From positions 2,741-14,776 of the forward strand of contig JALVPN010000012.1 of the NCBI GenBank assembly GCA_027031765.1: a DNA stretch of 12,036 nucleotides, written 5' to 3'. A model generated the notes under the pieces. The model searched no databases, was not told where the DNA came from, and saw nothing but the letters and a program-made list of their open reading frames with translations. Positions 8,144 through 9,289 of this stretch are shown in pieces. Position 1 is the first letter of the stretch. The number at the start of each line of letters is the position of its first letter. Origin of the DNA: Promethearchaeota archaeon. Lineage in GTDB: Archaea > Asgardarchaeota > Thorarchaeia > Thorarchaeales > Thorarchaeaceae. The position numbers and the translations under genes were made by a program.

Positions 8144-9289
8144 ATGGTACTGGAAGTATTGAGTGCTCTGAAGAAGTTCTTTGCGACGTACCCTTCCCGC
8201 TTCATGGACAGGGCGCACAAGTACGCAGGGTACTGGAAGGGGTACAGCTCCGTGTTCTTCTTCGTGAACATTGCCTTGGCCCTGGTGGTCGGTGCGCTCT
8301 TTCCTCCTCTTGCTGCTGCACTTAGGCCCCTCCTCCCCTATGTTGTGTTCTTCACGCTCTTCCCAGCGATGATGGGTGTCCCAGTTGAAGGACTGTCGGA
8401 GAGGGGCAAGAGAGCACTGCGTCGGAGGAAGGCGGTCTATGGTGAGAGGTACTTTGTTGAAGGACTGTCGGAGAGGGGCAAGAGAGCACTGCTGGTCTCA
8501 GCTGTCGTCAACTTCCTCGTGTCACCCCTTATCGCCTACTTCTGGTCAGGGCTCTTTCCTATTGGTGTTGACCCGAGGCTGGTTGTAGGGTGGGTACTGG
8601 TATTTGCCGTACCCTCTTCTGTAGTGATGGTGGTGTGGACCGAGTTGTCAGGTGGCGACAGAGGGACAGCCCTGGCCATACAGGTGATGAGCCTCATGGT
8701 CGCGATACTTGCCATCCCACTATGGATGACATTGCCAGCTGGAGTCTATGTCCCTGCAGACCCGGTAGCTATGGCGATCACCGCACTCTGGGTCATCGGC
8801 TTGCCATTTGTCGCCGGGGTTGGCGCAAGAGCGTTGGTCCTCCACACGGACTACGGCGAAGAGGCCCTTGAGAACAGGATAGGCCCGGTCCTGAGCTCAG
8901 TCTCAGGTATTGGCATGTATCTCGTTATGTTCATTGCGATATCTGGGGAGGCACCAGCAATACTGGGTAACCTCCACCTGGTCTGGGTGTTGGCACTGTC
9001 CACGGCCATTGTCTATCCACTGCTACTCTTCCTCACGATGCTGGTCTCAAAGGTGAGCAGGCTCTCCTATCGTGATGCGCTCCCGACATGGTATGCAACA
9101 ACATCAAGAGACTGCATCGTAGCACTTGCCGTGGCAGCAACTGCGCTTGGCGGTCTGGCAGTACTCCCCGCCCTAGTGGTCCCAATATTCCAGACCCTCC
9201 TCATCTACCTGATATGGGAAATCTCAGTCAGGATCCGGAGGCATGTTGACTCCATCCTGTTCGAGATATTTCCGGTCGACGAGTACTGA
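8144..9289 (+). CDS. Acr3-like / bile acid:sodium symporter (BASS/SBF) family transporter; substrate uncertain
   Basis: About 10 hydrophobic segments. Family-like motifs LFPAMM, NFLVSP-x-I-A-Y, P-[C>S]-SVVMVVWTELSGGD, LPFVAG and R-x-x-x-x-ALAVA. The start is uncertain (ATG at 8081, 8144 or 8204). Carries a 24-codon in-frame insertion at 8384-8492. Confidence 0.75.
   Translation: MVLEVLSALKKFFATYPSRFMDRAHKYAGYWKGYSSVFFFVNIALALVVGALFPPLAAALRPLLPYVVFFTLFPAMMGVPVEGLSERGKRALRRRKAVYGERYFVEGLSERGKRALLVSAVVNFLVSPLIAYFWSGLFPIGVDPRLVVGWVLVFAVPSSVVMVVWTELSGGDRGTALAIQVMSLMVAILAIPLWMTLPAGVYVPADPVAMAITALWVIGLPFVAGVGARALVLHTDYGEEALENRIGPVLSSVSGIGMYLVMFIAISGEAPAILGNLHLVWVLALSTAIVYPLLLFLTMLVSKVSRLSYRDALPTWYATTSRDCIVALAVAATALGGLAVLPALVVPIFQTLLIYLIWEISVRIRRHVDSILFEIFPVDEY
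8384..8492. repeat. Perfect 37-bp direct repeat (8384-8420 and 8456-8492) flanking a 35-bp unique segment (8421-8455)
   Basis: GTTGAAGGACTGTCGGAGAGGGGCAAGAGAGCACTGC is identical in both copies, and the flanking bases differ on both sides. The period is 72 bp, encoding VEGLSERGKRAL twice. Confidence 0.97.

Follow-up and report, generated by a model that had tools for sequence, protein, structure and literature searches.

Which process could have placed two perfect copies of a 37-nt coding segment on either side of 35 nt of unrelated DNA, in frame, within the gene of a membrane transporter? The question is raised by a locus of a Promethearchaeota archaeon (Asgardarchaeota; Thorarchaeia), contained in a stretch of 12,036 nucleotides which was analysed as a whole and is here called the window (GenBank assembly GCA_027031765.1, contig JALVPN010000012.1, forward-strand positions 2,741 to 14,776). 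The arrangement has the dimensions of a CRISPR repeat-spacer-repeat unit, and an original prediction, made from the letters of the window, had read it as a possible ectopic acquisition event. On balance, we lean towards the same view, namely that the 72 extra bp represent a natural off-target (ectopic) spacer integration by Cas1-Cas2. This mechanism is supported by geometry and genomic context, and not by a protospacer or an enzyme assay.

The 37/35/37 unit in the transporter gene and in the reads

The unit consists of a direct repeat of 37 nt, whose copies are 100% identical (8384-8420 and 8456-8492, GTTGAAGG...CACTGC), and of the segment between them, for a period of 72 bp and a total of 109 nt. 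Because the copies have different neighbouring bases at either end, the duplication measures 37 nt and the insert 35 nt exactly, in agreement with the boundaries originally proposed. Neither the 37-mer nor the 35-mer has any other occurrence in the host genome, a metagenome bin of 2.95 Mb in 229 contigs which includes the window, and no 14-mer of the 35-mer recurs; being single-copy in the genome, the unit is not explicable by chance. The 37-mer is ordinary coding sequence of the transporter, and the 35-mer, read straight from the sequence, is devoid of terminal inverted repeats.

The location of the unit within a coding gene and in frame, also part of the original prediction, was confirmed by the open reading frame (ORF) at 8081-9289 (+), for which an alternative start at 8144 gives a 381-aa form (P0002). 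The product matches the Pfam family SBF (PF01758; 4.5e-19, 69.3 bits against a cut-off of 24.3) as well as SBF_like (3.4e-10), while identity with the NCBIfam equivalog ACR3 was rejected at 49 bits for a cut-off of 283. With a family profile above the curated cut-off and a confidently modelled core, the transporter is a member of the SBF / BASS-ACR3 superfamily. The AlphaFold2 model reaches a predicted local distance difference test (pLDDT) of 83.7 and a predicted template modelling score of 0.81, and its confidence falls to 50-57 at residues 81-110 of the 381-aa form, corresponding to the duplicated and inserted segment.

In a full-length alignment of 13 sequences, the query included, the 24 extra residues were seen in none of the 12 homologs. 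In the two closest ones, of 46% and 34% identity, the conserved motifs MMG and NF are separated by 22 residues, a spacing which amounts to 44 residues in the query and to 20 once the 72 bp are taken out; the earlier statement that this deletion restores a normal loop is therefore accurate. Moreover, among 288 library matches, alignments often break at the position of the insert. Judged from these comparisons, the insert is the derived state, and the loop that received it is a tolerant one. What the insertion adds to the protein, RRRKAVYGERYF and the second VEGLSERGKRAL, is basic, as is the original loop. As 72 is divisible by three, as the insert is free of stop codons and as it entered a basic loop following FPAMMG, the protein gained 24 residues and was left intact. 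Sister strains with an empty or a filled allele were not found, the closest homolog from a representative genome being only 34% identical; a search of 5.8 billion proteins returned only the transporter itself and the 46% homolog, and the 37-mer was not found in the metagenome contigs searched.

One public run of a hydrothermal-vent metagenome, probably the source sample, contains the stretch and was re-assembled independently at k=31; two other runs from the same sample or study contain none of it and so lend no independent confirmation. The k=31 contigs end precisely where a 37-nt repeat must break them (Table 1). A 95-nt piece carries both junctions at a depth of 4.6, from which it follows that several reads hold them. 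Furthermore, contig ends of the original assembly have segments of 126-127 nt in common, which indicates a final k of about 127; as this exceeds the 109-nt unit, single reads crossed flank, copy, insert, copy and flank. The absence of reads spanning both copies, which had been named as a finding that would speak against the prediction, is thus not what the data show.

If every cell had the insert, its depth would equal that of the flanks (~10.8) and the core would lie at twice the flank depth. Instead, the depth of the insert is 0.43 of that of the flanks, a value so low that its probability would be ~0.007 if all cells had the insert, and the depth of the core is close to the sum of flank and insert. 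The simplest reading suggested by these k-mer depths is that filled and empty alleles coexist in the population, at about 40% and 60%. The existence of an empty (pre-integration) allele is accordingly supported, both by the homologs, all of which are without the insert, and by depths fitting ~60% empty in the same sample.

CRISPR systems of the host and solitary units in its genome

The host, which the protein names of relatives place among the Thorarchaeota-like Asgard archaea, carries three CRISPR effector modules on one contig, C139 (C followed by a number denotes a contig of the bin): a type I-D set at the contig edge (cas1, cas2, cas4, cas10d, csc2, csc1, cas3', cas6, csa1), a complete type I-B set and a type III-B cmr set. 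The array which follows the cmr set has 31-nt repeats and periods of 67-71, and continues on C63; a second array, on C162, has 29-nt repeats and periods of 65-68. As these arrays have repeats of 31 and 29 nt, a repeat of 37 nt is specific to I-D. C69 starts with a degenerate trailer (positions 21-205) whose repeats and spacers are both of 37 nt and which belongs to a type I-D-like array; the intact part of this array falls past the contig edge and is absent from the assembly. The second repeat of the trailer, CTCGCAGAACTAGGTTTCAGACTGGGTGGACTGAAAC, is clearly related to the I-D repeat of relatives (GTCGCAGAAG...ATTGAAAC).

In three relatives, the arrays beside an orthologous I-D cas1 (51-57% identity) have repeats of 37 nt in 160 of 160 cases, with spacers of 34-47 nt (n=152; mean 38.9, SD 1.8) and periods of 71-79. 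The 37-nt duplication of the window unit thus has the repeat length of both the host I-D trailer and the relatives' I-D arrays, unlike that of the 31-nt and 29-nt arrays of the host, while the 35-nt insert and the period of 72 fall inside the native ranges. Given the trailer on C69 and the 37-nt arrays of relatives, a system that duplicates 37 bp on integration and inserts about 34-42 bp is therefore in use in the host, or was so recently. A lack of Cas1-Cas2, or unit lengths of another size, would have counted against the prediction; what the genome holds is a I-D module with Cas2, Cas4 and a 5'-truncated Cas1, and trailer repeats of 37 nt.

The genome was also surveyed for close direct repeats with a middle unrelated to the flanks, and the hits were vetted by inspection. 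Besides the true arrays, some dozen units that stand alone emerged from this census, their periods ranging over 60-76 bp; no clean solitary unit was found with a period of 77-260 bp, where all hits were tandem or protein repeats. One class has periods of 66-69 bp, its repeats apparently measuring 24-31 nt, and is formed by units on C21, C152, C165, C181 (at 25701), C69 (at 1984), C139 (at 14916) and C188. The other comprises the window unit (period 72 bp, 37-nt repeat) and a 38/38/38 unit on C110 (period 76 bp). The two classes mirror the arrays of the host; outside both are the units at C181:18745 (period 60) and C201:5654 (period 73, 26-nt repeat). A scan for other 37/35/37 units, suggested by the original prediction, was hence met by one similar unit, that of C110, the remaining ones having periods of 60-73.

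In the units with periods of 60-73 bp, the copies differ by 0-3 substitutions, and the 2-3 found in several of them suggest different ages. Most sibling units are intergenic or straddle the 3' ends of genes, positions in which insertions are harmless. The C110 unit is perfect and lies at the stop codon of the aCPSF1/FttA gene (domains Beta-Casp, KH_TffA and RMMBL), of which it repeats the final 28 coding nt together with the stop codon and 10 nt from the 3' untranslated region; its middle is 82% GC and self-complementary, and its I-D-like geometry is that of the window unit. The same census was applied to 1.2 Mb of a well-assembled relative with a I-D array and a 29-nt-repeat array, where the rate of the host genome would predict about five solitary units. 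Apart from the genuine array, no more than one solitary unit emerged, which assigns the excess to the host genome and not to the method.

Several candidate siblings were discarded on inspection. The pair on C67 (27616 and 29011) belongs to a 23-aa protein repeat in a 2277-aa ORF, the middles of those on C138 and C196 hold a degenerate copy of the repeat, that on C181 at 14390 is likely a 24-aa protein repeat, and the families on C109, C40, C152 and C225 are protein repeats. The aspartate-rich 23-aa (69-nt) repeats of the C67 ORF mimic a CRISPR period in DNA. A degenerate orphan array, which matches the host 31-nt repeat (p<0.003) and has three decayed repeats at a period of 69, is present on C69, and isolated repeat-like fragments occur on C41 and C193.

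Table 1. Positions of the unit, its assembly pieces, neighbouring genes and related features of the host bin; entries without a contig prefix refer to the window.
Feature	Position	Strand	Remarks
BASS/ACR3-like (SBF family) membrane transporter gene, 402 aa	8081..9289	+	ORF, translation, Pfam, homolog alignment
Copy 1 of duplicated 37-nt target	8384..8420	+	Codons 102-113 plus 1 nt, VEGLSERGKRAL; perfect repeat; single locus in genome
35-nt unique insert ('spacer')	8421..8455	+	Encodes RRRKAVYGERYF in frame
Copy 2 of duplicated 37-nt target	8456..8492	+	Perfect repeat
Left flank and 30 nt of repeat (k=31)	8100-8413		k-mer depth 12
95-nt piece from within copy 1 through the 35-mer into copy 2 (k=31)	8391-8485		k-mer depth 4.6
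37-mer core (k=31)	8456-8492		k-mer depth 14.7
Right flank (k=31)	8463-8744		k-mer depth 9.4
Four successive genes (507, 733, 514, 500 aa)	829-7619	+	Proton_antipo_M domain in each
128-aa ORF	7676-8062	+	No Pfam/NCBIfam match
803-aa NosD / parallel beta-helix protein	9592-12003	-	Convergent with transporter gene
Trailer of I-D-like array	C69: 21-57, 95-131, 169-205		Three 37-nt repeats
Solitary units	C21:2352, C152:1431, C165:41739, C181:18745, C181:25701		Periods within 60-73
Solitary units	C69:1984, C139:14916, C188:9119, C201:5654		Periods within 60-73
38/38/38 unit	C110:70456-70569		At aCPSF1/FttA stop codon
Degenerate orphan array	C69:12335-12491		31-nt repeat family
Isolated repeat-like fragments	C41:34738-34762, C193:2877-2896		
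ORF with 23-aa repeats, 2277 aa	C67:24201-31031	-	
I-D cas1	C139:1-896		5'-truncated

Origin of the insertion

Duplication and insert have the lengths that an ectopic integration would leave, an empty allele apparently exists and one of the host systems has the matching geometry; we infer the following course of events. A Cas1-Cas2 integrase of the host I-D kind would have attacked the two strands at a stagger of 37 bp (positions 8384 and 8420 in the empty allele), and a prespacer of roughly 35 nt would have been joined between the cuts. Gap repair would then have duplicated the 37-bp target on either side of the insert, as happens to the repeat at a real array. The insertion would have survived thanks to the conserved frame, the lack of a stop codon and its position in the basic loop after the conserved FPAMMG motif. 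The event is recent, given that its copies are identical and that carriers seem to make up just ~40% of the population sampled; of the earlier claim that the insertion is recent and in frame, identical copies and the 72 in-frame bp bear out both parts, with the carrier fraction as an approximate figure. The inference of an ectopic acquisition is in this way supported, and nothing that had been listed as contrary to it was found; it falls short of proof.

Four other explanations were weighed. Replication slippage or template switching would make the unit a local partial duplication, the 35-mer being a scrambled copy of neighbouring sequence, and was put forward on account of the heptamer GTCGGAG, which starts the 35-mer and also lies inside the 37-mer. 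The shared heptamer is real, but it is not significant: the 35-mer aligns to the 37-mer with a score of p=0.155, and shuffles do as well as the 35-mer in Smith-Waterman alignment to both strands of the 3 kb at either side (fraction at least as good 0.855), so that a locally derived degenerate copy, the origin that would have overturned the prediction, was not detected. The in-register identity of insert and flanks is 14-20%, and copies which are 100% identical are irreconcilable with a middle diverged past recognition, which largely refutes slippage and leaves it a very small probability. An assembly or sequencing artefact, be it a chimeric join, a mis-resolved graph loop or a library chimera, could be suspected in a bin of so many contigs, for a sequence present in only one run, probably its own assembly source, with an insert depth below that of the flanks and with a relative whose better assembly is without such units. 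Against it stand the recovery of both junctions at k=31, the k of about 127 in the original assembly, which requires k-mers across the entire unit, the depth of the core, which fits a true polymorphism, and the 2-3 substitutions between the copies of several siblings, which are unlike artefacts; we regard it as improbable, if by a shade less so than slippage.

A different process may instead have cut the strands ~37 bp apart and captured filler DNA, the CRISPR dimensions being coincidental. Candidates are the repair of a staggered double-strand break with a captured fragment and the footprint of an unknown integrase or transposon. Such an origin, unlikely in our view and nonetheless to be taken seriously, would accommodate the truncated I-D cas1, a 37-mer which is not repeat-like, the lack of a protospacer or protospacer adjacent motif (PAM) tied to the insert and the variation in the apparent repeat lengths of sibling units (24-38 nt). 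It does not account for a duplication of exactly the I-D repeat length, nor for solitary units confined to the CRISPR-like periods of 60-76, with none clean up to 260 bp, and the 35-mer has no terminal inverted repeats. The target duplications of known insertion sequences are much shorter than 37 bp, and we know of no transposon or repair pathway that yields 37-bp target duplications with spacer-sized inserts. Least credible of all is a functional one-spacer mini-CRISPR array, or a regulatory element similar to a CRISPR RNA, maintained by selection. It would explain the repeat-spacer-repeat layout with CRISPR dimensions in a host with three effector modules; the unit, on the other hand, is part of a coding gene, in sense orientation and with no leader, and by depth is missing from roughly 60% of the population. 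As the prediction had cautioned, the 37-mer lacks a GAAAC-type end and any meaningful hairpin (-4.3 kcal/mol), and it is without the conserved I-D repeat ends (GTCGCAGAA...ATTGAAAC). Since it has neither the conserved handle nor a leader, the unit probably does not function as a CRISPR locus, and a bona fide array was rejected for a structure of two copies only, in coding sequence, without leader, 3' handle or repeat-family similarity.

The integration by Cas1-Cas2 must in turn be set against several observations which weaken it. The overall similarity of the 37-mer to any CRISPR repeat is not significant (p ~0.4), and no leader-like junction was seen at the unit. The insert belongs to the short tail of the native distribution, as lengths of 35 nt or less occur in only 2.6% of the relatives' 152 I-D spacers and the spacers of the host trailer are of 37 nt. 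The filled fraction is approximate, deriving from the mean k-mer depths of short low-coverage contigs and not from counted reads. Above all, the I-D cas1 is 5'-truncated and encodes only the equivalent of residues 124-340, with ~123 codons gone; its N-terminal part was found nowhere in the assembly, so the cognate I-D integrase may be dead in the assembled strain. The intact I-B Cas1 is part of the 31-nt system, so that duplications of 31 bp, and not of 37, are to be expected from it.

As regards the damage to cas1, the 227 nt upstream of the truncated gene show no relation to cas1 and occur nowhere else in the genome, and a protein search for a full-length host I-D Cas1 returned only the truncated 209-aa gene call. 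A transposon was considered as the cause and rejected: the first 260 nt of C139 do not recur in the genome, so that the truncation is not explained by a repeated element. The I-D cas2 and cas4 are present, and the integration may predate the damage to cas1 or may have happened in cells with an intact cas1 allele.

Two further lines bear on the proposed integration. In register, 7 of the first 11 nt of the 37-mer match a host I-D repeat (empirical p ~0.04, allowing for both strands and four repeats), and the repeat of the C110 unit matches 10 of 20 invariant I-D positions (p ~0.02-0.05); these repeat-end matches are suggestive at best. A protospacer was sought with the full 35-mer and with sub-windows of 24-25 nt in viral, genome and metagenome collections, with no match and hence no PAM; the PAMs of type I-D systems are GTN. 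The middles of two sibling units and two genuine host spacers gave no match either, and as genuine spacers are likewise negative, the result for the 35-mer is neutral and says little.

Neighbourhood, known counterparts and significance

Directly upstream of the transporter gene, the four successive genes with a Proton_antipo_M domain represent a Mrp antiporter or complex-I-like membrane module. The short ORF between them and the transporter may not be a gene. On the opposite strand, the NosD protein shows hints of a C-terminal Ig-like domain and is probably a surface protein.

The neo-CRISPR loci of E. coli, a name associated with Nivala and colleagues (2018), are reportedly of type I-E with 28-bp duplications. 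They resemble the window unit in having a spacer-sized insert outside arrays and a repeat-length duplication of a target which is not a repeat, in that they can fall in chromosomal genes and in that immunity is not expected of them. The E. coli cases come from overexpressed type I-E proteins, whereas the present case is natural, has the I-D geometry (37 bp), occurs in an Asgard archaeon, lies in frame in a conserved transporter and is apparently segregating; it is also accompanied by about a dozen sibling scars in the same genome. Off-target integration by Cas1-Cas2 into non-CRISPR genomic regions is described for E. coli in papers citing that work (PMC6607411), one of which refers to cultures overproducing Cas1-Cas2 and supplied with spacer-sized oligonucleotides (PMC7054753). 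Natural evidence, from two other species, is termed only circumstantial (bioRxiv 10.1101/148544).

In archaea, the Cas1-Cas2 of P. furiosus integrates in vitro at off-target sites with the correct spacing of attack points and some repeat features in common, in a plasmid assay with 30-bp repeats (PMC6698737); at the window locus, the resemblance of target and repeat is weak, being limited to the 7 of 11 first nt. The I-D arrays of Thorarchaeota relatives and the host trailer have in common with the unit the 37-nt repeat, with periods of 71-79 and spacers of 34-47. The unit differs from them in having one spacer, no leader, no conserved repeat or 3' handle, in being inside a gene, and in an insert which 97% of native spacers exceed in length. 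Orphan or degenerate arrays, such as that at C69:12335-12491, are similar as short repeat-spacer units away from cas genes, but they keep a recognisable repeat, in that instance of the 31-nt host family, and the 37-mer of the window does not. Taken together, the locus appears, by a modest preponderance of the evidence, to be a new natural member of an experimentally defined kind of event, in frame, apparently segregating and one of several in an Asgard archaeon.

A broader and doubtful extension, which we put forward only tentatively, is that ectopic integration is frequent in this lineage, about a dozen scars of different ages mirroring its own CRISPR geometries, and that CRISPR adaptation acts as a natural mutagen. 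A connection might exist between the relaxed specificity and the damage to the I-D adaptation module, whose Cas1 is truncated. If this were true, adaptation would be an insertional mutagen, a source of peptide segments and a seed of new arrays, with scars that include the 24-residue extension of a transporter and a duplication around the stop codon of aCPSF1/FttA, an essential termination factor.

The locus is a candidate natural event with unusually clean features, namely exact boundaries, a matching subtype in the genome, apparent filled and empty alleles in one sample, and siblings. Should this reading be right, adaptation would burden wild archaea with a measurable mutational cost, it could add coding sequence to proteins, and the raw material of new arrays would arise spontaneously. 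Moreover, it provides substrates, in the form of the empty allele and of an Asgard I-D Cas1-Cas2-Cas4, with which the way type I-D integrases measure 37 bp may be addressed.

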